From Psammoneis japonica (Eukaryota), in the NCBI GenBank assembly GCA_008632985.1, contig QPGO01000149.1:124001-185940 (forward strand): DNA of 61,940 bases. Direction: 5' to 3'. The notes below the pieces were generated by a model, which was not told the origin of the DNA, searched no databases, and saw only the letters and a program-made list of their open reading frames with translations. Shown piece by piece: positions 30,781 to 55,582 of the stretch. Position numbers and translations under genes: made by a program. Numbering within the stretch: position 1 is the first letter of the stretch; every line of letters begins with the position of its first letter.

Positions 30781-31182
30781 GCTACCATTACACACTACCA
30801 GCCACTTTTTTAAAGAAGGATCTAACTAAGACTATAGATCTGTAACTATTTTGTACAGAATGCTGAATTGTATCTGACTCATCCTTCGCAGAAGCTACAG
30901 TATTGTGTGTCCGGACCGCGAAACACCGCGAAGTGCGAGGCGCGAACGCATCAGTCATGCGAATCGATGCGAAACGGGACTCAAATTTTGGAAAATTTCG
31001 CAGAGAGCGTTCGCGCGAAGCGGAGCTGACAGCTTGAAAGAAGAGCTGACGATGAGAGCCGTAGCAAAAAGAGGGTGTACTGTATCCAAACTTAGCTCTC
31101 ACTTCGCTCTCCCCTTGTTTCATCTCCCGTCGATCGCTTCTCTTTGCACTAAAGGTTTTCACATAGGTTATTTGTTTCAATC

Positions 31183-33771
31183 ATGATGGCGGAGCGCACC
31201 CCAACCGCGAGCACGAATCAGCAGCAAAAGATGTCAAGCGCACCGACAGTTTCTGCCGACAGTGAATCCTCAAGAGCATCGATATCAAAAGGTGCTCAAG
31301 CCAAACGAGATCAGCATAAGCGTCGCGGTGATTCCGAATTTCGGTCCAGCAATTACGAACAGGCCTCCAAGGAGTACACGTTGGCCTTGTCTGTCGATCC
31401 AAACAACCCTCTCATTTTGTCGAACCGTAGTGCGGCCTTTATGCAAATGGGTCAGCCTCAAAAGGCACTCGAGGATGCCAGAATCTGTATTTTGCTTGAC
31501 AACAAATCTGCACGTGGGTATGCTAGGCTAGCAGCTGCGCACCATGCCTTGAAACAATGGGAGCCAGCAATAGAGGCTTATGAGAAGACCTTGCAGAAAA
31601 GCCCAGACAATACAGTAGCTCAGCGAGACTTGAAAAAATGTCGCGAGCAACTGGCTAAACAGAAAAGCGGAGGGTTCGCCGCCACAGCTACAGCAAATAA
31701 CAGTAATGTCAATGAGCAGAAAGTCGAGTCAGAACCGAAAACAAAGGAGAAAGTCAAACCAGAACCAGAAAAGGCAGATGCGTCGAAGCAACACACGGCT
31801 TCTCAAATTACTCCGATACCTGAGGCAGAAGCAGTCGCGGCGACTGATTCGACTTTGTTATCTACTAATAATGATCACAAACAGGCACCAAAAAACGTAT
31901 CACCTACCCGAGACGATGATGATTCCCTCAAACCCAAGCCCACAGTCAAGACACAAGCGGCGACTTCACCTGCCGCCGTGGTAACTCCCGAATCGACGCC
32001 ATCAACACCAAGTTCTACAAAGGTCGAGAGACAGAGTGTAAACAGCTCTTTGTCGGAGCCCAAGCCCGCTTCACCAGGGCTCCAAGTCAAACATCTCGAC
32101 TCAACACCTTCAACACCCAGCACTGAAAAGGACGGGAGAGGTGTAAACAGCTCGTTTTCAACATCCACTCCCGTTTCTCCAGGGATTAGCGCCAATACTC
32201 CTGCAACGCCGATAACCCCTGTTTTGGCCTCTCGTAGGAATACGGGTTTATCAGAACTCTCGAAACAATTGCGATTGTTGCAGGCCACAAACGAGGCACA
32301 GAATAATGAGATTGATCGACTGGAACGACAACTACGCATTCTGGCAGAGCTCAAGGGTATATCCGTCGATGACTTGAGAAGGGCGTTGCATATTGCCTGT
32401 GAGGATGAGGCCCACGCCGAGCTGCGAAACCAAGTTGCTATTCTACGGTCACGACTTGAAGCTTCCACTCTTGCTAGTTCCAAAAAGAGCAAAGATTCAT
32501 TTGAAAAGGAAGCTACAGACAAGGCCATGGCGAATATGCAGTTGCGTGTTGGAGAACTCGAAGAAGTAGCAGAGACGTTGCGAGGAGAGATTCACGAATT
32601 GTACCAAGACTTGTGTGAGGAGAAGTCTAAATCGACAAAGCTTCAACATACGTGTGATCAACAAAAGAAGAAGCTGGACGAATTGACACGAGAAGCCTTG
32701 GTAGTCAAGGAGAACAATGAAGCGCAATCTCAATGGAGTCTTTCACAGCAGCAGCTAGTTGTAAGAGGACAAACCGACAGCGTTGACAAGGAAGCACACG
32801 AAGCGGAGGTCCGACAAGCGCGGCTCGAAACGCAGCTGGAACGGGACAGAGCCAATCTTTTGGAGCAACAGACTCACGCGAGAGAAAACGAGGTGAAGTT
32901 GCTCAACGACCAATACAAGAGTCGCTTTCAAGTACAGGACCAACGAATTATGGATTTGGAGCAGCAGCTTTCTTCGCTTTACGCAGCTTTTGAAATGGTT
33001 GAAGAGGAACATGAGGGAGTGCACGAGCGACACAGAACGCTTACTAGCAATCTTCAGGAGGCCGATGAGCAGGTGGTCCGTCAGTTGACCAAAATGGAGA
33101 GTAGTCCGGGCCTTTCCGCGACGAATGATGACCCAGTAGTTTATGCAACACCTGTTCCCACCCATGCTGTTGCAACTCCGGAGCAAACAAGGTCAGTAGT
33201 GACAGAGACATATTCACCATCGACACATTCGCTAAGCAGTAGTCACGCCACACCATTCCCATCACCACCACTGCACCACCATCGGAGCTTTCGCAACAAG
33301 AAATCGCCCGTGAAGCAGAACTCGATCGTTGCGCTTGACTCGCAGCATGTAATTTCTGGCTGGTTGCTAAAACGTGACAAGAATATTCTAAAAGGTGCAT
33401 GGAAGAAGAGGTATTTCATTCTTCACGGAAGCAATGGTAACTACCAAATGTCTTACAGTGAAAAGCCAAAGGAAAAGGTGAAGGGAACTGTTGGCTACAT
33501 CACGACCGGCCTGTCTACGGTGTCTCCAAGCATTGGATTTCCAAAGCGACCGTTTGTCTTTGTGCTTCGTTCGAACCCACAAGATTTGCATGCCCCCGTC
33601 TTTCATGCTGCGGCTGAAGATTGTGAGGAGTATGATCGGTGGATATCTGCCCTCACTCTTGTCACCACCGGCAAGGACAGTACATATTCTGTGGGAGCAA
33701 GATCCGCGCAGGAGCAGGAAGCGGCCGATCACGAAGTGGCTCTTCGAATGCAAATGGAGTACATGGATTAA
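31183..33771 (+). CDS. TPR + coiled-coil + PH domain protein, paralogue 3
   Basis: 862 aa with TPRs, LSELSKQLRLLQ..LKGISVDDLRRAL..ACEDEAHAEL, and PH VISGWLLKRD..AWKKRYFIL..YDRWISAL. Confidence 0.9.
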   Translation: MMAERTPTASTNQQQKMSSAPTVSADSESSRASISKGAQAKRDQHKRRGDSEFRSSNYEQASKEYTLALSVDPNNPLILSNRSAAFMQMGQPQKALEDARICILLDNKSARGYARLAAAHHALKQWEPAIEAYEKTLQKSPDNTVAQRDLKKCREQLAKQKSGGFAATATANNSNVNEQKVESEPKTKEKVKPEPEKADASKQHTASQITPIPEAEAVAATDSTLLSTNNDHKQAPKNVSPTRDDDDSLKPKPTVKTQAATSPAAVVTPESTPSTPSSTKVERQSVNSSLSEPKPASPGLQVKHLDSTPSTPSTEKDGRGVNSSFSTSTPVSPGISANTPATPITPVLASRRNTGLSELSKQLRLLQATNEAQNNEIDRLERQLRILAELKGISVDDLRRALHIACEDEAHAELRNQVAILRSRLEASTLASSKKSKDSFEKEATDKAMANMQLRVGELEEVAETLRGEIHELYQDLCEEKSKSTKLQHTCDQQKKKLDELTREALVVKENNEAQSQWSLSQQQLVVRGQTDSVDKEAHEAEVRQARLETQLERDRANLLEQQTHARENEVKLLNDQYKSRFQVQDQRIMDLEQQLSSLYAAFEMVEEEHEGVHERHRTLTSNLQEADEQVVRQLTKMESSPGLSATNDDPVVYATPVPTHAVATPEQTRSVVTETYSPSTHSLSSSHATPFPSPPLHHHRSFRNKKSPVKQNSIVALDSQHVISGWLLKRDKNILKGAWKKRYFILHGSNGNYQMSYSEKPKEKVKGTVGYITTGLSTVSPSIGFPKRPFVFVLRSNPQDLHAPVFHAAAEDCEEYDRWISALTLVTTGKDSTYSVGARSAQEQEAADHEVALRMQMEYMD

Positions 33772-34826
33772 AAGGAAATGTTTGCGTGCGCTTTTTAGAG
33801 ATTGCTAAATTAGTGGGCTACCGGCATTGCAAGGCTTTACTTCGATTCTTTTTCGTTCAGCTATGCTCGTTTGCTATCCTGTGCCCTGAAGCTTCACGCA
33901 CTCATATTCGAAAGGAATGCGATGCTTGCCCTTGGGTTGACAAAATTGTGGAAACTCGGGATTGGTCACTCCCGATTGTTTCTTGCGCAGACAAACCAAA
34001 GAAATAACGGGTGGAGCGATTTCTTCTATCGAAGTAGGTATTCATGACTGTTTTGCTTTCTTTAGCATCGTGCAAATTGGAAGTCTCGCTTGTGTATGAG
34101 AAAATCAATTTCAAATTGATCGGACAACGTGCCACGGGTAGCGTGCACGAGTTCTCGCAAAAATGATGCGCACTAGCTAGACCTATGTTGCTACTGTGGG
34201 TTTTCAGCATCTTGATACTGGGATAGCTGGGGGTGTAGTGGCGACTAATTGAATTACGATTGCACAATTCCAACTGTGTGAATCAGCCGCCTCGAACGCC
34301 GAAACAAAACCCATCCCTTCCTTGTTGTAGCGAAAAAGGATTAAGGCTGGATCGATGTTTAGCACTATTTTTTTAAATAGCTCGTGATTTTCGAATTTCC
34401 CCGTACTTCGCCCGTGTTATTTTGCGAAGCCTCTGAGCACCCCTGAACACATATTATGAGTGTGTCCAGCCCCCATCAGGGCTGTTAGACCTTTATGTGA
34501 ACTACACATATTCACCTTCCAACGCCAATTATCGTACTTGCCTCGGTTGTTATATGCGATAAATCGCCATTTTCCGCCAAAATCGGACTGTTACGGTAGA
34601 TAAGCCACAACTTTCCAGGAAATGCCGATAATTGGCGTTTGACCGGCTATAGACATATCTACAGTCGTTAAGCTACACATCGCCCATGGTCGCAATCGTC
34701 ATATGTGCATTCTATGTTGTCTTACAAACAGACAAAGTTCGACCTATCGCTGATTTTTTTTTTGGCGAACGCGCGCATTATTAGTACGACAAATCCGGGT
34801 TATTTTTAAATGTTTACGAGCTCTAA

Positions 34827-35259
34827 TGCAGCATGCCTCGCTACTGGACAACACGGCGAGACCGTGCATAAGCCTCTTGTACGTGGCAACGTAGTGTTGT
34901 TAACACGTACCTGGGAAGCACGACCACAGGAGGGCGTGGCTCTAGGTCTCAGGCAATTCCAGAAGGATGCCAAGAGAGCACCCGTGTGAAGCACACCAGC
35001 CCGTCGTCTGGCCCACGATGGTGGCGTGATTCCACACGATGACATCACTCGTGCATGGCATGTGATGGCTTGATTCGCACGATCCACAACGCGAACGCAC
35101 GATCGATTTGATGCGATCCAAATGTGAACGAACAGGGATTTGGCAAGATTCCCTGTTCGCACGATCCCATTTTCTCCACTCTAAACTGGCTCACAATTTT
35201 CACAACGACAAAGTCGCAACACATCTTCTTTTTTCAGCGCCTGGTGCATGCACAGGGCA
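34827..35259 (+). repeat. Gypsy 5' LTR
   Basis: Direct repeat of 39226-39658, same length. Confidence 0.92.
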
Positions 35260-35320
35260 CAGCAACATTGCTCCCGCATGTTGTGCGAGGTGTCGAAATC
35301 TACAGAAACGAAACTACGAA

Positions 35321-38300
35321 ATGTTGGCAGGACCGACAAATCTTAAAACGACCATGAAGAAGCGGATTGAGCCGCCGATTCTGTTCGCACGGACGGAGAA
35401 GAAAGAGCTGCAGCAGGGCGAGTGCCAGACGTTCAAGTTGCATGACAACCCCACTGATCCGGACAGTCCAACGCACGAGATGGGCATCCCGTGCCTTTCT
35501 GCGGCTACATGCGAGACACTCCCAATCTTTCTGCGCAACGTGGATCGCGTGCACGAAGGACAAAACATCACGACCGGGCCAGCGAAATTTGCCCTTGTGC
35601 GTGACCTGCTGCAGGGCGATGCTCTGACATCATTTGACAATGCCGCTGACAAGCAGGCATCCCAAACCAACGCTGCGCACGCAGCATGCATCGCGAAGCT
35701 AAAGGAAAGTGTCTTCCCACACAGGGCGGTGCCATTGCAGAAGCGTCATCTGCGGCACTTCATGCGCAAGCCCGCAGAGGTTTCCACTCGTGACTGCGTT
35801 GTGAGGGCTGTTGAAATTAATGGCCATGTCTCTCAGTTTCCACCCGTGACGGAGGATGGAGAAACACCGGCACCATTGCCCAATGACGAACCATGCGACA
35901 TGTTCGAGTGCAGCGTGCCGAACGCATGGCAGAAGTTCATGACGCTACAGAATTTTGACCCGTTGGCGCATGCTGTCGCCGAATTTATGCAGTTCTGCGA
36001 GCGCACCGAGCAGGTCGAGCTTGCCGAAGGTAACCGCAACCAACACATTGAGGTTCCACGCAAGCGGGGACGTAGAACGGACAATCCTGAGTCGTTGATC
36101 ACGACCCAACGGAACACCCAGAAGTCGTGTGTGCTGCACGGGATTAACTGTGGACATCACACGGAGGATTGCCGTCAGCTCAAGCACCACGTGAAACGTG
36201 TCAAGACTGGACATTCCAACAACGGAGGCGGCAAGCCCAATGTAAAACCTCGGAATGAGGAAGATGTCAATGCTCTCATCGGATCGAAGGTCGAGGAGTT
36301 CTTTGCCAATGCTCAGAAAAAGCGCAAGGCACGCGAGGAGGAAATTGATCACTTCCGCGACCTCAATTTAAGTGATTCCGAAGACTCGGACACTTGCCGA
36401 CACGATGCAGGCAATTTTAACACATTGGATGAATGCACAAATGAACAACTGAACTGCCATCGTGCACGTGTTGCAGGCCAATCCCGCAAACAAGTTAAAA
36501 AGACTCATCTTGCTCCAATCTTGTTTGTGGCTGTGAATGCCAAACATGGCAAGGGCAAGACTCAAACCATTGAGGCACTGCCAGACAGTGGCGCCAGCAG
36601 CACTCTACTCGACAGTCAATGCTGCAAACGTCTGCGAAGCCATTCAACGGCTGAGACAAACTGGGCTGCGGCAGCAGGCTCGTTCAGCACGTCCAACGAC
36701 TGTGCCACGCTCGTCCGTGTGAAGCACCTCGTGCGTACGAAGCTACGCTGCATAAAGAAGTAGAATGCCTGGCACGCATCGGTGTTCTCAAACGCATTGA
36801 CCGATCCCAATGGGCAGCTCCATCATTTGTCATGCCGAAGAAAGATTTGATGGCACGCTTTGTTGATGATTTCAGAGAGCTGAACAAACGGATCAAGCGA
36901 TTGCCTCATCCGATTCCTCACATCCAAGATGTGCTGCTTGAGCTTGAAGGCTTTGTGTGGGCTGCGTCGCTGGATTTAAACATGGGCCATTGTCACATCC
37001 GATTGGATGCTGACAGCAAGAAGCTCTGCATGCTCATCTTCCCGTGGGGCAAGCATGAGATGCAGGCATTGCCCATGGGATCATGCAATTCGCCAGACAT
37101 TTTCCAAGAACGCATGTCAGGCTTGTTTGAAGATCTGTCGTTCGTTCGAACGCACTTAGATGACCTTCTCGTCGTGACGAAAGGCACCTGTGAAGATCAC
37201 CTCAACAAACTTGAAGAAGCTTCATTGAGGGTCCAGAAAGCAGGACTAAAAGTTAACGCAACTGAATCTCATTTCTGTCAAACCCAATTAGAGTGCTTGG
37301 GTTGTCTGGCCAACAGAGACGGAATGCGACCAATGCCCAACAAAGTCGACGCCATTAAGCGAATCGCGACCCCAACCAATGAACGCGACCTGCGTTCATT
37401 TGTTGGCATGGTGAACCACTGCCGCGACACGTGGATTGGACGTTCTGAAGTCTTGGCTCCGCTAACATGACTCGCAAGCGAGACTGTTGAGTGGGAGTGG
37501 ACGTCCGTTGAAAACGAGGCGTTCGAAACCGTCAAACGGGTGACATTGGATGATGTTTTATCATCACATCCTGATTTTAACAAACCCTTTGAGGTGCATG
37601 CCGATGCCTCTAAATGTCAATTGGGAGCAGTTGCATCCCAAGATGACAAACCCATCGCCTTTCACAGCAGAAAGCTCAACAGTGTGCAATCAAATTGCAC
37701 AACAACGGAGAGAGAATCACTCGCCATTGTGGAGACGTTGAAAGAATTTCGAACGATTCTCCTTGGTCATCGTGCAATTACATGTGCTGATCATAAAAAT
37801 CTTACGTGCAAAGCATTCAATGCCGAGCGCGTCATGCGCTGGCGGCCAACATGCGAAGAACACGGTCCCGAATTACGCCATGTTAAGGGCACCCATGACC
37901 CAGTCGCTGACGCTCTTAGTCGCCTTCGACTGGCACCCAGCTTGCCTTCCGAGGCTAATCCGGATGCAAAAGACACTCCATCGAGTCGTCCTTTGCATGA
38001 AGCCTTTAATGCAGACGCTCAAGATGAGCCATCTCTGCCTGTCAGCTTCAAGCGCATTCAAAAAGCACAACAAAAGGACAAGCGCCCACTCTCACGAGCC
38101 AAGGACTCGTCCGACTGCTCCATTCGCGCGCATCGTGGGGGAGGGTCATCACGACAGTTAATCTGTCATGAGGACAAAATCGCAGTGCCACAGTCATTGC
38201 AGGTTCCACTGACTGAATGGTGCCACGAGACACTGTGTCATCCAGGTGAGACACGCACGGAAACATCTGTTGCCCAGCACTTCCATTGGCCCAGCATGAG

Positions 38301-39270
38301 GTCTACGGTGCATTCTACGTGCGTTGGGTGCGATCGATGCCAGAAGACAAAACGCCGAACGCAGCGTTGTGGGAAGCTGCCAGAAAAGGTCGCAGAGACA
38401 ATTCCATGGGAGACTCTGTGCATGGATGTGATGGGGCCACACAAAATTCAAAGACGCGGAAAGGACACCTTGCAATTGTGGGCAGTCACAATGATTGACC
38501 CAGCAACCGGGTGGTTCGAGATTAAAGAAGTGTCTGCGAAACGCGCAGACGTCGCAGCAAACGTCGTGGAACAAACGTGGCTGTGCAGATGTCCGTGGCC
38601 AACCCAGGCAGTTCATGACCGTGGGACAGAATTTGTGGCAGAATTTAGCCAGATGATTAAAAATGACTGTGGGATTTTGAAGAAACCCATGAGTGAACGG
38701 AATCCACAGGCAAATGCCACAGTGGAACGTGCACACCAGACACTTGGCAACATGGTGCGTTCCTTTTCAGCACAGGACATGGAACTGGATGAAGATGACC
38801 CATGGAGTGGCATCCTCTCCGCAGTGGCCTTCGCTGTTAGAGCTGCGGTGCATGCGACCACGCGTGCAAGTCCCATGCAATTGGTCTTCGGACGCGATGC
38901 GGTTTTGTCCATTGCCCATCGTGCCAAGTGGAAGCACACAGAAACCAGAAAGCAGAAGCTTGTCCACTTAAACAACAAGCGTGAAAATCAGAAACGCAAG
39001 GAGTGTCAACATGCCGCAGGGCAATTGGCACTTGTCAAACAGGAACAATCCTCTAAATGCGGTTCTGACAGCCACGCAGGACCCGCCAGAGTTGTCCGTG
39101 TGTGTGACAACGGCATGTTGCGCATCCAGAACGGAGCACTGACAGACACGTGTGATCTGCGGCAGATTGTGCCCTGTCACCAGCAAGACATTCTGTCACT
39201 TAACGGCCCTGATCATGGGGGAGTGTGCAGCATGCCTCGCCACTGGACAACACGGCGAGACCGTGCATGA
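35321..39270 (+). pseudogene. Gypsy gag-pol: gag, protease, RT, RNase H, integrase; apparent deletion/frameshift near 36710-36760, TGA at 37468
   Basis: CVLHGINCGHHTEDC; ALPDSGAS; WAAPSF..DFRELNK; LDLNMG; HLDD; ADAS; DHKNL; H..LCHPG..CDRCQ; DVMGP; HDRGTEF; PQANATVER. Confidence 0.93.
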
Positions 39271-39658
39271 GCCTCTTGTGCATGGCAACGTGGTGTTGTC
39301 AACACGCACCTGGGAAGCACGACCACAGGAGGGCGTGGCTCCAGGTCTCAGGCAATTCCAGAAGGATGCCAAGAGAGCATCCGTGTGAAGCACACTGGCC
39401 CGTCATCTGGCCCACGATGGCAGCGTGATTCCACACGATGACATCACTCGTGCATGGCGCATGATGGCTTGATTCGCACGATCCACAATGCGAACGCACG
39501 ATCGATTTGATGCGATCCAAATGTGAACGAACAGGGATTTGGCAAGATTCCCTGTTCGCACGATCCCATTTTCTCTGCTCTAAACCAGCTCACAATTTTC
39601 ACAACGACAAAGTCACAACACATCTTCTTTTTTCAGCGCCCAGTGCACACACAGGGCA
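39226..39658 (+). repeat. Gypsy 3' LTR
   Basis: Direct repeat of 34827-35259. Confidence 0.92.
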
Positions 39659-39697
39659 CTGAATAAAATCGACCGCTGAACAACGATCCATCCTCAA

Positions 39698-41585
39698 GCA
39701 CTGCCATCCTTCTTTTACAAGTTTCCTGCCTTGGGCGATGACAGTCAAGTGCGGATTGCTCAGATGGCAATGCACCATCTCTGCAGCACAGGCCCGTGGG
39801 GGCACGAAGAATCTCGGTAGATGAAAGGTCTCCCCATCTTCGTCTTCACTCTGCACCAGTCAGGATGTGAGCCAGCAACCTTGAGCTTTGATCCCCACAC
39901 TGCAAAAGGAAACCGTCTCTCGACAAGTGGAGTTTCTCTCATTTTTGAAGCCCCAGTGTGGATTGGTCTGTTCGCCTGCAACCTGCCCACATCTGCAAGG
40001 GCCAACAATTTTCTGGTTGGAAATCGCGGCATTCGTCAATTGCAGTGCTTGCGTGTTCGCCACTCTGTGCTGCTTGTTGGACCTTTTCAAAAATCTCTCC
40101 ATTTGCACACTGCCAAAATGCCTTTGTGCCATGAAAGGTTGGGCCATGGCAGCTTGTTGGTTGGTCCTCTCCTTGTTTGGTCGGTTGTCACGATGATGGA
40201 CAAACCAGCAGTGGTCAGCAGTGCCAGATTTGGTCTGCAATCTTGAATCAGTGAAGCACGTTGGGGAAGGAAGGACAGTTGCTTCATCTGAGACCTCGTT
40301 GATTGTGTTGGCTCCGGCACGCCAACACCCTCCCCTGATCAAAGCATCGGTTTGATCACAAAAAAAGAAGAGCCGCACAAATGGAGCAAATGATGCTGTC
40401 ATCAGAAAAACACATCCACAAATGCCGTGCCACAGTCCACCGGACAATCCGCTGCAAGGCAATGCAGCACAAGAAACCCTCCCCCAGTTGGAAGAAGAAG
40501 AGCAAGGGTCGTCATTGGACAGCTTCGACAAATCCAATGTTGGGTCATCAAACCAGGGAGCAGAACAACAAACAGCAAGGAAAGACGGCTTGGGTCATCA
40601 TCAGAAAGGGTCAAGACATCCAAGGAGAGGTTGGTCATCCACGTGACGGGGTGCGGGGCATCCTCGTTTGGGTCGTCGTCGGGCAGCTTGGATGGATCCA
40701 AAGTCACGGCAGAACCAAACCTGAGAGAAAAGCCAGCTGGGGCAATGGAAGAACCTTCAAAGCCAAGTCCATCAATCCAACCAAAGGAATGCAGTGGCAA
40801 CACAGCATTTGCAATGGGATGTAGCTGCAAAGACTGCAATCCAGGGGAAAATGGGTCGTCGTCGGGGAGTTTGGAAGGATCCAACGTGGCGTCTGTTCCA
40901 AAACAAAGAGACACGTCAGCATCATTCCCAGAAGCAGGAGCATCGCAAACACAACCGTCAACCCAATCAAAAGGATGCAAAGGGAAAGCAAAGGCCCTGG
41001 TTGATCTCTCAGTGGCAGAGAACCAGATCGACAAGATGCGGCAGGGCTGCACGGGCAACCCGCATCAGGGCATCGCTCAGGGGGCTGCACAGGCAAAATG
41101 GACTCATGCGCCACCTTGGAAGCTGCTTTGTCAATGTCCATGTCGATGACAAAGGGATCAGAAGTGGGAGAGGCAAGCTGTTCAAGCAGAAAATGCCGCC
41201 ACCAGTCAACATGCGAGCGGAGGCAAGGAAGTGACTCAAAAGAGCAGGGGGGCAAGAGCTCCTCTAGAACCGTCCTGGGATCCTGACTTGAAAACTTTGC
41301 AAACAGGAAAGTGTGCAGATAGAACGCATTCCAAGCATTGTCACAATCAGGCAGCTCAAAATTCTCTGGTTTCGTCAGCTCCAGAGCCAGTTGGAAAGAA
41401 TCTACCGGCGCCATGGGGTGACAGAAAAGAGCTCCCGACTGCTTGTCTGCAGAGAGCATTGACCGGCAAGAATCACATCCACAGCTGCTGGCACATTTCA
41501 CAAGAAGGAGAGAGGAAGGCTGAGAGGCAGGATCATCATCAGCTATCCCGGAGAGGTCATCACTGGTGCCGTAAGAGAGCGTCAT
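39698..41585 (-). pseudogene. Disrupted gene-like sequence with five D-x-x-x-(L/I)-x-(D/N)DDP motifs; 3' part probably continues at 34344 toward ~33900
   Basis: Minus-strand frames give DLSGIADDDP, DPSKLPDDDP x2, DVLTLSDDDP and DLSKLSNDDP across frameshifts. The frame reads through the empty TTAA site (KEGWQC-LILFRYNKEG). Confidence 0.5.
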
Positions 41586-42002
41586 GGTTCGCCGGGATAA
41601 AACAGTATCAACACGTAGAACTTGTACTAGAGGTCACGTAGAAGATGTCCGATTCGGAGGATGAAGGCTGGCAAGTCTTCGTAAGGCTTACGAGCATCAA
41701 CAACCACCGGCAACGGAGTAAAAAATAGCCAATATCAACAGAATGGATGCTTGTCAATGAATCACTGCAAAAAAAGCAGCAAAGCCTTGATGGATCGAAG
41801 GGTGCAGTGCCGTAAGTCGATTCGTCGCCGTGGTTGGATCCTGCGTAGAAACAATGCTGGTTCCCACGTAGAAAAAAACAAAGTCGTTGAAAAATAGTCG
41901 AAGTGGTTGGTGGCCAACGGGCTCTTCCATAAGACGAGTTGAGGTGCTCGAATGTAACGCATTGACGCTATGTGTCCCAAATAACGCAGAGGAGGCATTA
42001 AA

Positions 42003-42043
42003 GGTATCATTCAAGGGTTGATGAACAAAGACCCCGGACTTCT
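42003..42043 (+). repeat. 41-bp exact copy of 57378-57418
   Basis: GGTATCATTCAAGGGTTGATGAACAAAGACCCCGGACTTCT occurs at both positions. Confidence 0.92.
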
Positions 42044-42194
42044 GCAGTGCAGAGTTGCAGCGATGGAATGGAGAAGGAAGTAACTCAGGTTACAGCTTCC
42101 ACGTTGGAAACGGTACGGGTTCTTCACACAATGCGAACATAACACCCTAGCATGCTCAACCAAAGATAGATCGTCGATGAATCGTTCAAAATCA

Positions 42195-43754
42195 TCAAAG
42201 TTTTAAGATAGACTTCAGCGTTTCTACCTGATCTTGAAGCAGCCTATCATCATCCGTGAACTCAGAACGACCGAAATCAATAATCTTGGCGCGTTTCGGA
42301 TCCTCACTGCTCTGTACAATGTTTCGGAGATCCAGATCGTTGTGCACAAGACCAGCTCCACTCAAAAGACGTAAACTTTCTAATGCCGATACTCGAAGCT
42401 CAAGAGAAATGTTTTCGAGACCAATGTCCTCGAAACTAGGGCCTTCCTTTCCCAAGCACAACAAAGGAACTCCGAGATGGGTGCTGAATCCATAGAACTT
42501 AGCAATGGCGTCCTTTACATTGGAGTTCTGAGACAGCTTCTGGTATGCTGACGCCTCGTTTGTCATTTCTTCGGCAACATGTTCTGCCCGAGTATTGTAC
42601 TGCATTTTGATAAGGACAGAAGGGTTTTTGTTGCTGGAAAGAAGCTTGACATTGTCATTGTAATCGACAAGTTCACAGTCCCACATATAGACACGAGAAG
42701 CGAATCCAATCGCGTCTTCAGAGCAGGCCGATGTTGCTCCTGTCTCACTCTTTCCATCGTCAAGTTTCTTTCTGCTTTTATTTGGGAGACTGTTCTTATG
42801 TGTCGATTCTGGTGGGTCTCTTGTTTTCTTCTTCCGGTCTTTGTCGGGACTTTCTTCCAGACGACGGGCTTTTACAGCGGAAGCAGGGTGGCAAGGGGTC
42901 TCCTCTAGTTTGAAGTCACGAAACTCTATAATGGTCTTGATTGCCTGAAGCACTGATGGCGAGGTTTCTTCCTTCCGAAACGGGCGAGAGATCTTGAGCG
43001 TACCATTAGAATCGCGGCAGCAAAACCACCAAACTTCGTACAGATTGATCACGCCGTACCTAAGCCTCGAAGAAAGCATTTGACCGTAGACTTGACGAAT
43101 CAAGTGAAAAACTTTCTTTTTTCCTTTTGTCCACTCTTTTGGAAGAGGAGATTTGCTCTCCATATTTTCAGCCGTGAAGCCATTAGGATATTGAAATAGA
43201 GTTGTTAGCACTCTCGTACCGTCGCCGCGTAGGAGAAAGCGGAATTTCCAGAAAGGCTTGGTTTCGAAAGTACATAAGGGAACGGTGTTTTCAATGACAT
43301 GTCTCGACACTGCCTGGCGGCTCACTGGAGATTTATACTCAGACGGAGCAGATATTATCTCTTGCCCTTCTCGTCGTAGCGCAACCAAGTCTGGCTGTGA
43401 CAACGTGTATACATCGTTTTTCACAATGTCAAAGTCAGCCTGTACTATTCGAAATACCTTGAGTAACGCCCGTGTATTGTCTGTCACATCTTCTTCTCTC
43501 TCGACATAATCAAGCCCAGTTTGAAGGATGCTTGCACCAACATTGGTGTCAATTATGCGGGTGTTCTCGGGTCGTTGTGATGCCTCTTGAATCTTGGTTG
43601 GAAACTCGGGCCACTCTTCAACAGAGATGGGAGTGTGGGAATGAGCAGCCCACGTCGTTGATCCCTTTCCTTGCCTCTGTAATGAGCCATGTAAGTAAGT
43701 TAGATTCGGCAGTGCAACGTTAATATGGTCCCATACGCTTTGACGAGACGCCAT
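42195..43754 (-). CDS. Restriction-endonuclease-like domain fused to a protein-kinase-like domain (Crinkler-type REase+kinase architecture)
   Basis: 519 aa. QPDLV..CTFETK..IRQVYGQM..LRYGVI..WWF, then VLIKM..NEASAY..LVHNDLDLRNIV..KIIDFGRS. Confidence 0.78.
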   Translation of the reverse strand: MASRQSVWDHINVALPNLTYLHGSLQRQGKGSTTWAAHSHTPISVEEWPEFPTKIQEASQRPENTRIIDTNVGASILQTGLDYVEREEDVTDNTRALLKVFRIVQADFDIVKNDVYTLSQPDLVALRREGQEIISAPSEYKSPVSRQAVSRHVIENTVPLCTFETKPFWKFRFLLRGDGTRVLTTLFQYPNGFTAENMESKSPLPKEWTKGKKKVFHLIRQVYGQMLSSRLRYGVINLYEVWWFCCRDSNGTLKISRPFRKEETSPSVLQAIKTIIEFRDFKLEETPCHPASAVKARRLEESPDKDRKKKTRDPPESTHKNSLPNKSRKKLDDGKSETGATSACSEDAIGFASRVYMWDCELVDYNDNVKLLSSNKNPSVLIKMQYNTRAEHVAEEMTNEASAYQKLSQNSNVKDAIAKFYGFSTHLGVPLLCLGKEGPSFEDIGLENISLELRVSALESLRLLSGAGLVHNDLDLRNIVQSSEDPKRAKIIDFGRSEFTDDDRLLQDQVETLKSILKL

Positions 43755-44288
43755 GGCTTCACCGTCACTGTCGCGTACTTTTAGGTGAAAGCAAGACGAT
43801 TTGATTTGATTTTTCAGGATCGATTTTCTATCGGACCCCGCCAGAAGTTATCCGTACAAATGCCATGATGCCATATGGCATTTCTTTCTACGCCGGACCT
43901 GGTACTGATTCTACGGAATGCCATAAAGCGCGTGAAAAAGGCGTGCCGGCGTTGATGATTCGTGTGAATGAGATAGGCACATGTACTTTATGACCGAGTG
44001 TGCCCTCTCTGATGTATGTATGTTAACTAACGTATTTTAGATATACCGGGAACCGTTAGGTTTGCCCCACATCAGCGATGATGGGGTCTCTCCTCGGTTC
44101 TCGCACAACTTTTATCAAGTCATCTCAAGCTAGATCTTGCACTGCAATTGCAGTTGTTGTCATGGCTTGTTCATTGCATCATCTGTTTTATGACAACGCG
44201 AAGAGTGTTGTCGAGAAGAGAGAAAATTTGTTTGCGAGCTCGTGCAGAAAATTTCATTCAAAATCGATCAGAAGCGCAGCGCAACTTT

Positions 44289-44564
44289 TGACAGGATTTG
44301 AACAGGATTTGGGTGCGCGCGAAATGTCACGCACTGTTTAGTTTACCGTGCACAGTTTTGTGTGCTTTAGTTCCGCGCGTTCGCGCGCGATGCAGTTTGC
44401 TTTCGAGCCACAAGGCTCACAAGAACAATGACAGCAGCCCGATTGTGCCGACTCACACGTCTTTCGGCTCCTGTGACGGTCTCTGAGCGGAGACTCATCT
44501 GCTGTTTAGACAGCAGTGAGGAGTTGTTGTTTGAATTCTTGCCATTTGCCGTCAATTTCTGTCA
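44289..44564 (+). repeat. Copia 5' LTR
   Basis: Direct repeat of 51016-51291. Confidence 0.95.
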
Positions 44565-45500
44565 GATCAACAGTCTTGCTCATTGTCAACCCATTGAGCA
44601 ACCGCCATCGTCGTCGTTGATTTGCCGACGACGCTGTTTCAATTCTGCGTGGATCTCCGCATGTGTTCTACATGCATCGGCAAGTCCATGCGCATTCAAC
44701 ACCAGGCACTGGCAGGAAGTTAACGTCACCGTCAAGTCTCCTCACCACTGGATGTCTGGATTGACCACACTGCCTTTCATCGCTGAAGACATGCGTTCAA
44801 CGGTCACACCCAAGTCTGTCCTTGATCCTCATCCCTTGATTTGCCCATTCAACGGTTAACGGTCAAGAACCCTGCATGTTCAAGGATCTTCGTCGCTGAA
44901 GACATGTGTGTGTGCACATCTTCATGGCCAAGGACTTGCACCCACTCTTTGGACTGCGGCTTTGCTGCCACTCTGCAAGCACGCCGAGTCCACTGCACCT
45001 GATCTAGCCTGGACTGCTGGTGCTCCACAGTTCTGCTGGGTCCACGAGGACGACTGTGAGAGCAAGCAGCCGTGATTGCAGCCTGCGTTGGGGTGAGGGT
45101 GTTTTCCCGTGTTTGTTCGTTTGTCCACAGTGCCCAACGCCTGCGTCAACTGGCCAGCCTGATCGGGAAATCCAACCGACATGTGATGGGAATGGTTCAG
45201 GGGTCTTGTCCACCTCTGGTCAGCTTGCCTGCAGGGGTTTACAACCCGCTGCTCTGCTCGCAAGCAACCCAAAGCGCCACCAGCTGCGGGTTCGGACGTG
45301 CCGGCACAACTCTGCGGACCGGATGGGAAGTTTAGCACTCAACAACGAACGGGATGGCACAGCCCGGCGTCTTCTGATTTTAAGGCAGTTCAAGATTTCA
45401 AGTCAAGTCCATTTCAAGTCAAGTCCATTCTCACCCAAGTTTCAAGTCCACCTTCGCTTCCCAACAAGAATTGCTTGTCCTGGCACCACTTTTGTCTGCC

Positions 45501-48500
45501 ATGGTTCTCACTCATCAGCAACAAACCGATGGTTTCGAGCACATTGTTGGAACCGTGCTTGCCCAAGGTGCTGGGAGCCCTCTTCGTTTGGCTTTGACCC
45601 AAGACAGCACGGACTCGCATCAAGAAATGTTCACGTTCATGCCGTCCCAAATCGACTCGCTTGAGTGCGACAATGGCACTGATGTGATCCCTTTGCCCCG
45701 CGGTTGTAAGAACATGTTAGCAGCTCTGACCAGTCTGTGCGTTGTCAAAGCACACAAAGGTCTTGACGTTGCCAATGACTTCTCGTTGTTCACGCATGAC
45801 GAGTTCCTTGCCTGCTGCCTCAGCCCCGACTGCATGTCTTCTGTGTCCATCGGCAGTTCGCCCCTTGCACCTCCGCATGTCACCAACCCGACCAAGGCAC
45901 GCGACCCGGTGCGAGACTTCAAGTGAGGCATCAAGCGTGACCCCACCGCTTTCACGGCTCTCAAATCCAACAAGCAGTGGCACACTTGGCACACCTCACT
46001 TGTGGCACAAGCCCGTGCCCAAGACGTCGAGTGCATTCTAGACTCGTCGTACAAACCGACCAGCCCCGAAGACAAACTGCTCTTTGCTGAACAGCAAAAG
46101 TGCATGTTCGCCGTCTTCGAACGCATCCTTCTCACCGACAAGGGCAAGGCTCTCATTTGCGAAAATGTGGGGTCTTCTGATGCCCAGACCGTCTGCCGTG
46201 CCTTGTCTGAGCATGCGCTCGCCTCCACCTGCGCATCTGTCGAGTCCTCCACCTTGCTCACGCACCTTGCCACCGCACGTCTTGGTGATGGCACTTGGAA
46301 AGGTCCAACCCATGGGTTCATCCTTCATTGGCAAGATCAGTTGCGCAAGTGCAAGGCACTCATCCCGGCCACTGACCACTTCTCTGAAGGACAGAAGTGC
46401 GTCATGCTCGAGAATGCCGCACATCCTGTCGAGGAACTCCGTGCTGTCAAGAACCAAGCTGATCAGCATCGCACACAGAGTGGCAAGAGCCTCACATGCG
46501 ATCAACACTGTGGCTCACTCCTCTCCGCGGTGGCTCAATGCAACAGCACGTTTCAACCCAAGATGACACCTCAAGCTCCCCGACGTGCCACACACGCACA
46601 CGACGTCTGCTCCGAGGAACCGTCCGATGATGTGTTCTGTGACATTGACAGCGACATTGACGTCCTTCAGGCTGATGCTGCCTGCACCCGTGGTCCCAGC
46701 CTCACCGGTGACCAATGGAAACGTCTCCCTCCCGACCACCAACGGATTTGGGATTCGTCGCCCCATTCCTCCAAGGCGATCATCCTTGAGCATTCTCGTC
46801 CGCCTCCCCGCAACCCGCGAGCCAGCAACTGCCATGAGTCCGTTGCGGCCAACCTTCACGACCAACGCCTTGGGAGTGACGGTGCTGTCAACTTGTCCAA
46901 CACGACTCCTGCTGACTCTGGTGACCCCACTCCAAATGTGGGTGCCACTTCGGATGATCCCATCCTGGCGCACCTCACCAAGCGCAAGCCACTGCCACCC
47001 GGTGATCTGCAACGTCTGTTGTCTCCTAACCAAGCCCCCAACGCCAGTCGACCGGGGCCATCCGCCGCTCCCTCTGCCTCGCCAGCTCCTGCCGATGACA
47101 TGGAACTTGACGGCCGCACTTGCCGCCGCGTCAATGACCACAATGTCATTTGCTCTGCCTCTGCTCATCGCTCCACACGCACTGGTGCTCTGGTTGATCG
47201 TGGGGCCAACGGCGGCATTGCTGGCGACGACGTTCGCGTCATTGCACGCACCTCTCGCCAAGTCGACGTTCAGGGCATTGACGACCATCAATTGGTGGAC
47301 ATCCCTGTTGTCACCGCTGGTGCCGTCATTGAGACCCAGCGTGGTCCCGTCATCGCCATCCTCCATCAGCACGCATGCACGGGAAAGGGCAAGACCATTC
47401 ATTCCTGCGGCCAGCTCGAATGGCACAAACAGGATGTCAACGATCGCTCTGTCAAGGTGCCCAACGGCTTGCAATGCATTGCCACTCCTGATGGCTGTGT
47501 CATCCCCATTGACATCAAGGGTGGCCTGCCTCATGTTGCTGTGCGACCTTGCACTGACGCCGAATGGGACACCCTGCCCCATGTCATCCTCACCGGTGAT
47601 GACACATGGGATCCTTCCGTCCTCGATCACTCTGTCACTGATGACGACCAGTGGTGCGACGCGATCTCTGACCCACAGGACGATCCCACTGCCAACCTGT
47701 TTGACGAATGCGGCAACTGCCGTCATCATGTCGTTGTCAACAAGACCATCATGTCCGCTTCCTTGTCTGCCGATCACGCGTCCGCCCTCGATGATCACCT
47801 CATTCCGAACGACGACGTGTTCCACGAGTGTCATCTGCACGCGATTGACCCCAAGGACGACGACGTTCCGCCCCCGGAGCGCACTGTGCAGCCCAAGGAC
47901 CCCCCCTTCGAGTCTCTTCGGCCTTGCTTTGGCTTCCCACCTGCCGACACGGTCCGTCGTACTTTTGACTGCACCGCGCAGTGCGCCCGCATGCCCGCCG
48001 GCACACACCTTAGGAAGGCCCACAAATCACCCAACCCCGCCCTTAATGTGCACCGCCGCAACGAGCCCATCGCCACTGACACCGTTCACGCCGACACCCC
48101 GGCCGTCGACTCTGGTTGCACCAGCGCCCAACTGTTTGTTGGCACCGAGTCTGCTGTCACTGACGTCTGCGGCACCAAGACGGACAAGGAGTTTGTCAAC
48201 ACACTTGAGGATCAGATCCGTGAGCGTGGTGCCCCATCCAAACTCATTGGCGACCATGCTCAAGTTGAGATCAGCAACAAGGTGCTCGGGATCCTGCGAG
48301 CCCTCTTCATCTCCAGCTGGCAAAGTGAGCCTCACCAGCAACACCAAAACTTTGCCGAGCATTGACACCAGACCGTGAAGCACATGGCGAACACTGTCAT
48401 GGATCGTTTCGGTTCACCTGCCCACACATGGCTGCTGGTGCTCATGCACGTGTGCTTCACACTCAACCATGCAGCGTCCCCACGTCTCCACTGGCGCACG

Positions 48501-51015
48501 CCCCTCGAGACTCTCACTGGCTCCACCCCAGACATCAGCCCATTGCTTCACTTTCACTGGTGGGAACCCGTGTGCTTCCACCTCGATGACTCCGATTGGC
48601 CGTCCGAATCCCGTGAGTTGCGTGGACGCTTTGTTGGCATTGCTGAGCACGTCGGCCACCAGATGACCTTCAAGATTCTCTCTGACGAGACTCAGAAGAT
48701 CCGCCATGACGACAACCCCGTCGATTCTCCTGATGGGGAGATCAGGACACCCAAGATGCCCGTTTTCGATCCGCAAGACATCATCGGACGCACCTTCCTC
48801 ATGCAGCCACAAGAGGACGGACAACGCCACAGAGCTCGCATCGTCAAGGCCGTCAAAGACCACGAATGGAAAGTGAACGGCAATCCCGAGCTCACTAAGT
48901 TCGTCTGCTCTGTCAACAACGACGAATGCGAGGAAGTCCTTGCCTGCAACGACATCATGAATCACATTGAGCAAGAAGGCGAAGACACTGCTGTTTGGAA
49001 ATTTCGACGCATTGTGTCACACGAAGGACCTCTGAAGCCTCATGACCCAACCTGGAAAGGCTCAAGCTACAACATTGTGCTTGAATGGGAAAGTGGGGAG
49101 ATCACGTCCAAGCCTCTTGCCATCATCGCCAAGGACGATCCCATCACCTGCGCCATCTGTGCACGAGAGAACGGACTTCTCGACACTGATGGCTGGAAGC
49201 AGTTCCGCACCATCGCGAGGCGCCAGAAGAAGCCATTCTGCATGGCCAACCAAGCCAAGCTTCGCTCCTTCTGCACTGCACCTCGCTGCAAGTGCGGGTG
49301 CGAAGTTCCCCGGAACTACAAACACGCCATGTCACCAGACGAATGCAACAGCAACCGCAAATGGGGAGACGCAACTAATCTCGAGATGGACCAACTAGAG
49401 GAATGTGAAGTCTTCCATGACTGTGGGCCCTTCGAGTCTTCCACTCCTCCTGCGGGACACAAGAAGATCCGAGTGCACCCAGCGCACGACGTGAAACACG
49501 ACGGTCACCACAAGGCACGACTCGTGGCCGATGGGCACCTCACGGACGCACCCATCAACAGTGTCCACTCCGGAGCAGTCTCCCTCCGTGGCCTTCGGCT
49601 GATGATTTTCCTGGCCGAACTCAACGAGTTGGAGACATGGGCCACCGACATTGGCAATGCCTGCCTTGAAGCCACCACCAAGGAGAAGCTCTACATTGTA
49701 GCCGGACCCGAATTTGGCAAACTCGAAGGACACATCCTTGTCATCCACAAGGCCCTGCATGGACTGCGCAGCTCCGGTCTCCGCTGGCACGAGCGCTTCG
49801 CCGACTGCCTGCGAGCTGAAGGCTTCTTCCCCTGCCGCGCCGAACCCGACATTTGGATGCGCAGGAACGGCAACCACTGTGAATGCATTGCCGTTTATGT
49901 GGATGACCTCGCCATTGCCATGAAGGACCCTCAATCTTTCGTCGACACTCTCACAGAAAAGCACAAGTTCAAGCTCAAGGGTGCGGGACCCATTGAGTTC
50001 CATCTGGGCTGCGACTTTTCCCGGGATCCCGACGGCACCTTGTGCCTGTCTCCGTGCAAGTGCATTGAGCGCATGGTCGACAGCTGCACCCAACTGTTTG
50101 GGGAGAAACCTGCCACCAACGCCCTGTCACCTCTGGAGAAGGGTGACCACCCCGAACTGGACACTTCCGAACTGCTGGGGCCCGATGGCATTCACAAGTT
50201 CCAGTCTCTTGTTGGTTCACTCCAATGGGCAGTGTCCCTTGGTCGAATTGACATTGCCACGGCCGTCATGTCACTCTCTAGCTTCCGAGCTGCGCCCCGT
50301 CAAGGCCACTTGGATCATGCCAAACGCGTCTGTGGGCACCTCTCCAAGATGCGACACGGCGCTCTCCGCATTTGCACGGAAGAGCCCGACTGTTCGGATC
50401 TCCCTGCTCCGGCCCATGAATGGATGCATTCCGTGTACGGCGAAGCAGAAGAGATGATCCGGAAGGACGCTCCACCACCCCTTGGCAAGTTCGTCACTGC
50501 CACCCACTATGTTGATGCAAACTTGCACCATTGCATGCTCACCGGACGCTCTGTCATGGGAATGCTCCACTTCCTCAACAAATTCCCGGCTGATTGGTTC
50601 TCTAAGAAACAAGCCACCGTGGAGACTGCGACCTGCGGGTCTGAATTTGTTGCCGCAAGGACTTGTGTCGAGCAGATTGTCAACCTGCGCATCACCCTGC
50701 GCCACCTTGGCGTCCCGATCCGCAATGTCAGTTGCATGTTCGGTGACAACAAGTCGGTTGTAGACAGTGCCACCATCCTGCACTCCAAGTTACACAAGCG
50801 ACACACCGCACTGTCGTTCCACCGTGTGCATGAGGCAATTGCCTCTGGTTGCCTTGAGCTCCACTTCATCGAAGGCTCCCGCAACCCTGCTGACATTCTC
50901 AGCAAGCATTGGGGTCACTCCCAAGTCTGGGACCTTCTCCGCCCCCTCATGTTCTGGAACTTCATTCCATCCAAAGTCGAATCTGTTTCTGTGGCTCCTC
51001 AAGCAAACTGGGGAG
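45501..51015 (+). pseudogene. Copia polyprotein with in-frame TGA at 45924 and 48363
   Basis: DFK*GIKRD; LVDRGANGG protease; IATDT..GDHAQVE..SEPHQQHQNFAE integrase; KARLVADG, DIGNA, YVDD RT; YVDA, GSEFVA, GDNKSV, NPADILSK RNase H. Confidence 0.93.
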
Positions 51016-51291
51016 TGACAGGATTTGAACAGGATTTGGGTGCGCGCAAAATGTCGCGCGCTGTTTAGTTTGCCGCGCACAGTTTTGTGTGCTTCAGTTC
51101 CGCGCGTTCGCGCGCGATGCAGTTTGCTTTCGAGCCACAAGGCTCACAAGAATGACAACAGCAGCCTGATCGTGCCGACTTACACGTCTTTTGGCTCCTG
51201 CAACGGTCTCTGAGCGGAGACTCATCTGCCATTTAGACAGCAGCAAGGAGTTGTTGTTTGAATTCTTGCCATTTGCCATCAATTTCTGTCA
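51016..51291 (+). repeat. Copia 3' LTR
   Basis: Direct repeat of 44289-44564. Confidence 0.95.
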
Positions 51292-51474
51292 ACTTTACTC
51301 GTGAAATTGGCGATGCGGAGCAGCGTTTTTTTGAACTCAAAGCACGTGTTGCTGCCATTGAATTTGTTCTTGTTTGGTCATTGGTTGTTCTTGTTGTGTG
51401 GATCAAATGGGAACGCCTTGTTTCGTTTGTCTTGTGGGTTGTTGATCATTTGATCGCTGAAATTGTTCATCGCC

Positions 51475-54400: not shown

Positions 54401-54848
54401 ACTGTCGCAACGTGTGGCCTCACCGTTCTCACCTGCTTGCACCTCTGACTGAATTGACAGGCAAGAGTCAGTTCCAATGGATGGAATCATGCCAGAAAGC
54501 GTTCAACGAGATGAAAGCAGCAATCACGATGGAAGCATTGATGGCCTGCCCTAACCACAACCTGCCATTCCATGTCTGCGCCAATGCATCAGACTGCCAG
54601 ATGGGCGCCGCTGTCATTCAAGATGGCAAACCGGCGGCGCATTGGTCTAAGAAGCTTTCGGCGGCTCAACGGAACCAGTCAACAATGGAAAAGGAACTCC
54701 TGGTCGTCATCATGTGCTTCAAGGAATTTTGCTCAATGACACTCGGTGCTGAAATCACTGTTCACACTGATCACAAAAATCTCACCTTTCGCACTTTGAA
54801 CACACAGCGCGTCCTTCGTTGGTGACTGTTCCTCAAAGATTTTGCGCA
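51475..54848 (+). pseudogene. Gypsy gag (RGG-rich tail), protease, RT, RNase H; multiple TGA stops
   Basis: CPVPWHHGRHVWGQC; LFD*GGSHT; DVILG*DFL; PKKDGRVRWVSDF; KLDL; CVDD; LRSFLG; EKELL; TDHKNL. Confidence 0.9.
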
Positions 54849-55400
54849 AACAAACAAAAATGCAGAGAACCGCAATTGCCAAGTGCTCTCCATGGATTTT
54901 TTCCTCGACACTTTGTGAGAGACTCAACACACATCCTTGCAAAACATCAAGTCATGATTGCTGCAGCAGCAAACATGTCCACAGCCGCTCCGACTCCCTG
55001 CCAGTTGAGAAGGTGAAAACTGAAGTGCCCATTTGCCTCAAAACTGCAAACAATGAGAACCACACCTGTGGACTGCTTTTCATGAAGAATTGAAGCTGTT
55101 TGCTGATGCAAAGGGACTGAAAGAGAAGCATGTGGTTTGCCAAGAGAACCGCGGGGCCAAGGTGCTCTCACCCATTCTCATCAATGGACACCGTGGAAGA
55201 GGGTGGGAAAATCGAAAGCGTCATCCTTCCTTGGTGCATGGAGGGTGGCATTTCAAGAAGACATGCCCTGTCCCAGGAAAGCACCGTGGGTGTGATGGAC
55301 CTGAAGATGAGACGACAATGGAAGTCTGGCAGGCCGCGCAACGAGCATGAGTCATCAGGACAGGCACACGCACACGCACATCTTCTTGTTGTTCCTCGTT
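54849..55400. repeat. Unclassified TpA-depleted fragment abutting the truncated Gypsy
   Basis: TA almost absent until ~55420. The sequence does not continue the integrase. Confidence 0.45.
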
Positions 55401-55582
55401 CCTCGTCTCCTTGCTTGGTTTATCGCGATGACGGACAAACCGAAATTTTGAATTTTGAATGACTATCCATTGACGATGTTGTATAATATATTTAATTTTT
55501 ATTAGACTGCGCTACTGTATTGAGCTTTCCTGCTTTTTCTATCTGCAGTTGCAGACTCTAGACGTGCGTTTTGGTTTCCACG

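Follow-up and report, generated by a model that had tools for sequence, protein, structure and literature searches.

A 61,940-nt stretch of the Psammoneis japonica genome (assembly GCA_008632985.1, contig QPGO01000149.1, positions 124,001–185,940 of the forward strand; hereafter the window, whose first letter is position 1 of all coordinates given here) carries a Ty3/Gypsy retrotransposon that is inserted in a miniature inverted-repeat transposable element (MITE), which itself interrupts gene-like DNA. Over positions 34944–41543, a tract that covers most of the Gypsy element and the DNA to its right, the dinucleotide TpA is severely depleted while CpA and TpG are raised, and we are highly confident that TpA-specific mutation in situ produced this tract. 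The mutation took place after integration of the Gypsy element and hit its two long terminal repeats (LTRs) independently and on both strands. Our observations also support the view that mutation follows position and not the identity of the element.

Over the whole window the observed/expected ratio (o/e) of TA is 0.41, with a bimodal distribution. Two-state segmentation, by which tract edges were called, separates normal segments (TA o/e 0.46–0.58, CG o/e 0.96–1.03) from four depleted tracts at 8596–11246, 34944–41543, 44369–55420 and 60099–61940 (TA o/e 0.04–0.15, CA 1.41–1.85, TG 1.53–2.13). The tract considered here holds 57 TA in 6600 bp (o/e 0.15, CA 1.48, TG 1.53), compared with a TA o/e of 0.58 in the adjoining normal segments. 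DNA to the left of the MITE (33772–34342) has 25 TA and an o/e of 0.58, equal to that of the window's normal segments, and the MITE body has 38 TA and an o/e of 0.97, so that the normal TA content reported by the first-pass annotation on this side is borne out. To the right of the nested elements, 39698–41570 retains 7 TA (o/e 0.07), after which 41571–42194 returns to 28 TA (o/e 0.66). This agrees with the ~1.9 kb of TA-poor, gene-like DNA up to ~41570 that the same annotation had described, the edge now being placed at 41544–41572.

The Gypsy element occupies 34827–39658 on the plus strand, with LTRs at 34827–35259 (5′) and 39226–39658 (3′) that differ at 27 of 432 compared positions. Its assignment to Ty3/Gypsy rests on the LTR pair, a target-site duplication (TSD), a purine-rich tract immediately 5′ of the 3′ LTR, and the domain order protease (PR), reverse transcriptase (RT), RNase H and integrase, for which Pfam returned RVT_1, RT_RNaseH_2, Integrase_H2C2 and rve in the Gypsy order. 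The interior (35260–39225; gag-PR, RT, RNase H, integrase) has a TA o/e of 0.22 and stops at 36761–36763 and 37468–37470. Tyrosine makes up 0–0.4% of the residues in its open reading frames (ORFs), in which histidine and cysteine are raised. The RT motif at ~37150, in the ORF 36655–37470, reads H-L-D-D where the conserved box is Y-x-D-D, so that a TA-to-CA mutation would have replaced Tyr by His. At the break between the gag-PR and RT frames (36736–36761) four TAs are kept within 26 bp, although the rest of the interior is depleted.

The TSD copies flanking the Gypsy element read CTAA on the left (34823–34826) and CTGA on the right (39659–39662). To establish the ancestral target we made use of other copies of the MITE in contigs from three sequencing runs of one sample (including runs X1 and X2), the joints and differences given in this work being those among the matches listed. 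In at least three contigs of X1 and at least one of X2, position 34825 is joined straight to 39662, a junction that agrees exactly with the empty site expected once the Gypsy element and one TSD copy are deleted. Because these empty sites match the predicted junction, the ancestral Gypsy target was CTAA.

With the Gypsy element removed, the MITE consists of a 482-bp left part (34345–34826), which is unmutated and whose final 4 bp (CTAA) are the left Gypsy TSD copy, and of its last 31 bp at 39663–39693, giving 513 bp in total. It is flanked by TTAA on the left (34341–34344) and TCAA on the right (39694–39697), and its terminal inverted repeats (TIRs) align over ~45–65 bp, spanning the Gypsy insertion site. 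A contig of run X2 contains the end of another copy, in which TTAA is followed by the same terminus. The TTAA duplication, the TIRs, the many copies and the lack of coding capacity identify a non-autonomous TTAA-targeting TIR element. Its termini read GG..CC, and the label piggyBac-like refers to its TTAA target and TIR-element traits. The ~510-bp TIR element proposed by the first-pass annotation is thus confirmed, and its termini recur in other copies. When metagenomes were scanned with the MITE terminus motif, 119 loci came up; BLAST showed no resemblance of any of them to the MITE, its tail or the flank, and we regard them as chance matches.

In silico removal of both elements joins 54 codons from the right with 46 from the left into a minus-strand ORF of 100 codons that reads KEGWQC|LILFRYNKEG across the joint, as predicted from the sequence earlier. 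The left portion is the 46-codon open gene tail at 34207–34344 (minus strand), which ends with the left TTAA. The other two frames across the excised junction are 6 and 69 codons long. We estimate that a frame of this kind would arise by chance about one time in ten, so that the restored frame is real but weak evidence for a split gene.

The LTR pair provides evidence for mutation in place. Changes at TA sites account for 22 of the 27 LTR differences. Seven of these are single differences in which the 5′ copy has TA and the 3′ copy has CA (four) or TG (three), twelve form six CA-versus-TG double differences, and the remaining three fall in one complex site (35060–35062 versus 39459–39461) compatible with a multiply hit TATA. 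Such doubles are expected where independent hits in the two LTRs fell on opposite strands of one ancestral TA. Among the other differences, four are CpG in the 5′ copy versus CpA or TpG in the 3′ copy, and one is of another kind. Since the LTRs were identical at insertion and now differ by independent hits at TA, the Gypsy element must have been TA-normal on integration and was mutated in place. The complex site would also fit a TA that in one copy was changed on each of its strands to give CG, in which case the mutator can make new CpG. No strand bias was seen, either in the single differences of the 3′ LTR (four CA versus three TG) or in run X1, where the counts were 109 A>G, 113 T>C, 118 G>A and 105 C>T.

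Host-side DNA next to the 3′ LTR was changed as well. Within 39659–39697, which comprises the right Gypsy TSD copy, the MITE tail and the right MITE TSD copy, three of four inferred TA sites are changed (39660–61, 39677–78 and 39694–95) while the TA at 39664 is kept. These are the changes in the right TSD copies (CTGA, TCAA) and in the TIR that had been noted at first inspection. The changed CTGA copy is the only proven post-insertion mutation outside the LTRs; at two MITE-tail sites, less than 40 bp from the LTR, we infer post-insertion change. Editing before integration was considered and is ruled out, as the LTRs differ at independent sites and a TSD copy is changed.

On the left, the tract begins within the 5′ LTR, 117–170 bp from the left end of the Gypsy element. 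All single LTR differences are within 34842–34943 and all double differences occur from 34997 on, so that the 5′ LTR is spared over 34827–34943 and mutated from 34997 onward. In contrast, the 3′ LTR is mutated end to end and has a single TA remaining. In the first 117 bp of the LTR, TA is kept at 7/7 sites in the 5′ copy versus 0/7 in the 3′ copy (Fisher p = 0.0006), and within the 5′ LTR it is kept at 7/7 sites in these 117 bp versus 1/10 in the rest (p = 0.0004). The first-pass annotation had placed the left limit of the tract at the Gypsy element; the element is indeed TA-poor, but the tract starts 117–170 bp inside its 5′ LTR. Its claim that mutation goes by position is upheld by the opposite fates of the two LTR segments and by those of the MITE body and tail. 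The right edge, at 41544–41572, falls ~40 bp or less from the ATG (41585) of the first ORF of the flank.

A Copia element at 44289–51291 (plus strand; perfect 5-bp TSD ACTTT, RVT_2; LTRs at 44289–44564 and 51016–51291) serves as a comparison case. Its LTRs show 21 differences, made up of five CA/TG doubles (10 positions), three single TA differences and eight of CpG type. The 5′ LTR keeps TA at 44339, 44344 and 44368, and CA-versus-TG doubles start at 44426, with the segmentation edge at 44369. The Copia tract therefore begins 80–138 bp into its 5′ LTR, between 44368 and 44426, and the LTR-internal left edge is the same pattern in Gypsy and Copia.

Summed contig depth separates copy number from mutation. 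It is 58 over the unique gene at left, 2341–7774 over the MITE, 12853–43854 over the Gypsy element and 57–218 over 39657–42500. Because the high-copy MITE body is spared and a right flank of 1–4× is erased, neither homology nor copy number is by itself what determines the tract. The first-pass annotation had named a high-copy repeat at 39.7–41.6 kb as one of two findings that would overturn its account, and the depths over this segment show that it is not one.

We consider the right flank (39698–41585, minus strand; TA o/e 0.07, CG o/e 0.49) to be a gene relic rather than a high-copy repeat, given these depths and its homology to a metagenomic protein. It contains the ATG at 41585, ORFs on the minus strand that span 309, 220 and 244 codons and use three frames, a further 54 codons at the MITE junction, DDDP-type repeats, and 58 stop triplets in 1.9 kb of the minus strand. 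Positions 41079–41396 resemble protein P0049 (phmmer E = 1.9e-6, tblastn E = 3e-12), a 265-aa protein with DDDP repeats that comes from two metagenome contigs and is the only phmmer match for the flank. Pfam returned no family for the six flank ORFs tested, word-based searches drew no homologue of either the 309-aa or the 244-aa ORF, an Atlas search for homologues of the flank ORFs gave no usable match, and a metagenome scan with the 309-aa ORF gave 534 pattern matches but no relatives. By a codon log-odds score the flank ORFs are not separable from transposable-element ORFs or opposite-strand frames.

Part of the flank can be compared with an intact host gene. A 100-bp fragment at 40204–40303 (plus strand), inside the tract, has 88% identity to 57097–57196 of the gene at 56898–57575, and at 5/5 places where the intact gene has TA the fragment has CA or TG. 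A second fragment of 46–50 bp at 41998–42047 (plus strand), outside the tract, matches 57373–57418; it is unmutated, with 41/41 positions identical (42003–42043 versus 57378–57418) and TA kept. The two fragments are collinear with the gene, 1.7 kb apart, one on each side of the right tract edge.

A second copy of the right flank was not found within the window, yet a second version exists among the contigs. The sole X1 contig over 39943–40270 differs from the window at 12 places and by two gaps, with CA/TG doubles at 40100–01 and 40140–41 and with TA at 40225 where the window has CA. Another X1 contig, over 40739–40997, has CA at 40822, the site of one of the few TAs that survive in the window's version of the tract. 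At none of the differing places listed do these contigs carry the window's own letters, and no single contig among those listed covers the whole stretch. For the unique genes on either side of the tract the contigs are identical to the window. The second version could be a paralogue, the other allele, or a change between DNA preparations that reflects ongoing mutation; in any of these cases the two versions carry independent hits.

Surviving TAs are not a random sample of sequence contexts. We compared 125 survivors in the tracts (8596–11039, 34944–41543, 44369–55420 and 60269–61940) with 1213 TA sites in normal DNA. TTAA is enriched 3.85-fold and CTAA/TTAG 3.07-fold among the survivors, and none of the 125 is in ATAT or ATAC/GTAT (chi-square for context bias, p = 8e-21). 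In the Gypsy interior, ATAN/NTAT sites have fallen from 14.4 to 1.0 per kb, with TTAA (4.3 per kb) and CTAA/TTAG (2.8 per kb) untouched; its 3967 bp keep 28 TTAA/CTAA/TTAG sites, 17 of them TTAA. The right flank has no such site in 1846 bp, where 7.6 would be expected at normal density (P ~5e-4 by our Poisson estimate). Normal DNA has 57 CpG per kb and the Gypsy interior 63, compared with 33 in the right flank. Close to the 3′ LTR, three TAs lie in the first 160 bp of DNA beyond it (39664, 39716 and 39818) and none in the next 1000 bp. Mutation has thus gone further in the right flank than in the Gypsy interior, so that the flank was probably targeted earlier or independently and did not simply receive overflow. 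The survivor bias can be read as an order of sensitivity, in which the Gypsy interior is at an early stage while the Copia element and the relic at 51292–55420 are further along. The order in which TA contexts are lost tracks the loss of CpG and could be a clock of exposure.

By analogy, the locus appears to be a variant of TpA-restricted hypermutation, for which we found a single printed counterpart, namely a preprint from 2026 on Bigelowiella natans (Mettrop et al., bioRxiv 10.64898/2026.01.13.699255). It describes TpA-only hypermutation of integrated giant-virus and virophage DNA, with rates measured in mutation-accumulation lines; the main target is single-copy and transcriptionally silent, and the viral region was extended by ~21 kb on the basis of mutation rate. 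An ADAT2-like adenosine deaminase is proposed there, though not established, as the agent. As at our locus, nearly all of the changes described are A-to-G or T-to-C at TpA, yielding TpG or CpA on either strand, and they are limited to blocks of tens of kb or less that are poor in TpA and rich in CpA plus TpG; both the type of change and the discrete regions of this composition are found in the window. The two cases are also alike in that a single-copy region is hit, so that copy number is not the trigger, and in that the TpA-poor coding sequences of Bigelowiella are enriched for reverse-transcriptase and DDE domains. Unlike Bigelowiella, a chlorarachniophyte, the host here is a diatom (a stramenopile), the targets are LTR retrotransposons and a gene relic, and depletion is near saturation (o/e 0.07–0.22 versus 0.45 in the viral region). 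The terms “diatom”, “flanking” and “boundar...” are absent from the main text of the preprint, and its Results and Discussion give no flanking-base preference. No diatom counterpart was found among the best-ranked full-text literature matches, a search that was not exhaustive. New here are the LTR-internal edges in two elements, the spared high-copy MITE, the context preference with its staging, and a host-like flank that is not simple overflow.

In Neurospora and other ascomycetes, repeat-induced point mutation (RIP) likewise brings about dense, dinucleotide-specific, in-place transitions in repeats and transposons, which can extend to neighboring non-repeat DNA and genes. RIP changes C to T mainly at CpA. 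It thereby creates TpA, whereas here TpA is destroyed: TA stands in the spared segment of the 5′ LTR and in the intact host gene at sites where their mutated copies have CA or TG. RIP is moreover triggered by duplication and hits every copy of sufficient length, whereas here the high-copy MITE is unmutated and identical LTR segments differ 7/7 versus 0/7. Functionally RIP is thus an analogue, but neither its chemistry nor its trigger fits. The closest parallels for the damage of a neighboring gene are its DIM-2-dependent branch, which mutates non-repeat DNA next to repeats (bioRxiv 10.1101/2021.04.05.438447), and the leakage of RIP into single-copy genes that has been discussed (PMC3105345).

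Editing of RNA by ADAR or of cDNA by APOBEC shares with this locus clustered transitions with a neighbor-base preference. ADAR, for example, favors U before the edited A. Unlike such pre-integration editing, the LTR hits here are independent and host DNA (the TSD copy and the MITE tail) is changed, which places the events on chromosomal DNA after integration.

To account for the whole tract we favor a composite history, for which we see an even chance, with an older part in the orphan pseudogene and a younger part over the Gypsy element. In this history, hypermutation of TpA to TpG or CpA (A:T to G:C) would have acted in place on silent DNA to make the tract 34944–41543. The older part would be the CpG-decayed orphan pseudogene from 39698 to ~41545, with its tract ending ~40 bp or less from the start codon. 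The younger part would lie over the Gypsy element, starting 117–170 bp into the 5′ LTR and joining the older one on the right by way of the 39-bp MITE tail. We infer that sequence homology is not what the mutator is aimed at, its target being a silent domain defined in cis, either of chromatin or in the form of an aberrant transcription unit. A simple transcription-coupled form of this model is not favored by the transcriptional silence described for the hypermutated Bigelowiella region (10.64898/2026.01.13.699255). Speculatively, promoter-like DNA, namely the U3 region of the 5′ LTR and the region upstream of the orphan gene, might lie outside this domain or block it. The chemistry could be adenine deamination at TpA, by analogy with what is proposed for Bigelowiella. 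Of the first-pass suggestion that chromatin and not homology guides mutation, the part concerning homology stands, in that homology or copy number alone is insufficient; a chromatin domain is one of two kinds of domain that would fit.

Several points weigh against the composite history. In an alternative to it, a normal orphan gene received first the MITE and then the Gypsy element, on which a mutated domain formed and extended ~1.9 kb rightward only. This extension, essentially the spread from retrotransposon into flank that the first-pass annotation proposed, would be either one-sided spread of heterochromatin or read-through transcription from a start in the 5′ LTR through the 3′ LTR. The flanks were contiguous before the MITE inserted, as its TTAA/TCAA duplication attests, and TA density switches exactly at the insertion. 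A tract in the flank before insertion would thus need a left edge no more than ~120 bp from the MITE site, since the left flank is normal. This coincidence is eased, though not removed, because a TTAA-targeting element lands only where TTAA survives. The Copia element likewise is bordered by normal DNA on the left and by TA-poor DNA on the right, and spreading downstream would explain both cases without coincidence. A tract that starts inside the 5′ LTR is what a U3/R start predicts, given that the same segment of the 3′ LTR is mutated, and hits after insertion are proven for the TSD copy of the Gypsy element and probable for the MITE tail. Furthermore, the young 3′ LTR and the MITE tail have lost four of five resistant-context sites, two of them certainly after insertion, and such strong intensity at that end, rather than age, could have driven the state of the flank. 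Deeper mutation of the flank need not mean age in any case, and the flank may have differed from normal DNA in its original content of TA, TTAA and CpG. Against spreading, however, stand the 28 resistant-context sites in the Gypsy interior, its presumed source, versus none in the flank. CpG in the flank is about half that of the Gypsy element or of normal DNA, while the LTR pair differs at only four CpG sites. The three TAs nearest the LTR, with none in the next 1 kb, are the reverse of a decay with distance, and the right flank of the Copia element is itself a retroelement relic, a target in any event. With one post-insertion site proven outside the LTRs, and a flank more deeply mutated than the element, we regard spread into the flank as doubtful, though it deserves serious consideration.

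Two further explanations seem less probable. Tracts might stop about one nucleosome (80–170 bp) before ends that face active DNA, with the asymmetry arising only from older tracts at the right. Both free edges do lie 80–170 bp into an LTR, both right ends adjoin TA-poor and CpG-poor DNA, and the window has no LTR element with a free 3′ end. These are two cases only, in the same orientation, and such a rule gives no account of why both insertions sit at the left edge of an older tract; we judge it quite unlikely. We think it very improbable that a RIP-like guidance by homology or copy number, with leakage, hit the right flank because it was duplicated. In its favor, the second version of 39943–40270 in X1 shows independent hits in its CA-versus-TG doubles, the LTRs are the deepest part of the Gypsy element (summed depth 28311–43854) and more depleted than its interior, and leakage into single-copy genes has been discussed for RIP in Leptosphaeria (PMC3105345). 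This explanation would nevertheless have to accommodate an unmutated high-copy MITE body, opposite fates of identical LTR segments, a reversed chemistry, and a hypermutated viral region in Bigelowiella that is single-copy (10.64898/2026.01.13.699255).

The left neighbor of the tract, an unmutated host gene with TPR and PH domains (Pfam TPR_1/TPR_2/PH) at 31153–33771 (plus strand), has a TA o/e of 0.52 and a CG o/e of 0.91, and an X1 contig matches the window identically over 33000–34370. It is one of three plus-strand TPR and PH-domain paralogues in 30 kb, the others being at 3400–5679 and 11801–14098, which are duplicated yet TA-normal. On the other side, a kinase-like gene at 42195–43847 has 48 relatives of about the same length, of which the named ones are from Bacillariaceae and Amphora. 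The possibility that this gene extends into the flank was rejected, as it is complete and its relatives are of like length and cover ~94%. Elsewhere in the window, the tracts 8596–11246 and 60099–61940 are the most decayed (TA o/e 0.04–0.06, CG o/e 0.15–0.23), and Pfam gave no match for the ORFs tested in them. Runs of N, which mark assembly gaps, adjoin these two tracts, one each, at 11040–11212 and 60129–60268.

If real, the TpA mutator acts on chromosomal DNA after integration, on both strands and indifferent to copy number, and it tells identical LTR segments apart by their location, with tract edges that are sharp to ~30–55 bp. The locus argues against homology sensing of the RIP type and points to guidance by chromatin or by a transcription unit, and it would also mean that the sequence of host genes can fall to the process. 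We offer as a tentative possibility that diatoms possess a defense mutator that deaminates the adenine of TpA throughout a silent unit bounded in cis, which would run from U3/R through the element and could swallow adjacent host genes. Were this the case, targeting would be guided by chromatin or by the nascent transcript and not by homology. The tract edges, a base preference under which ATA/TAT is sensitive and TTAA/CTAA resistant, and the ordered disappearance of contexts would together then be a clock of silencing history.

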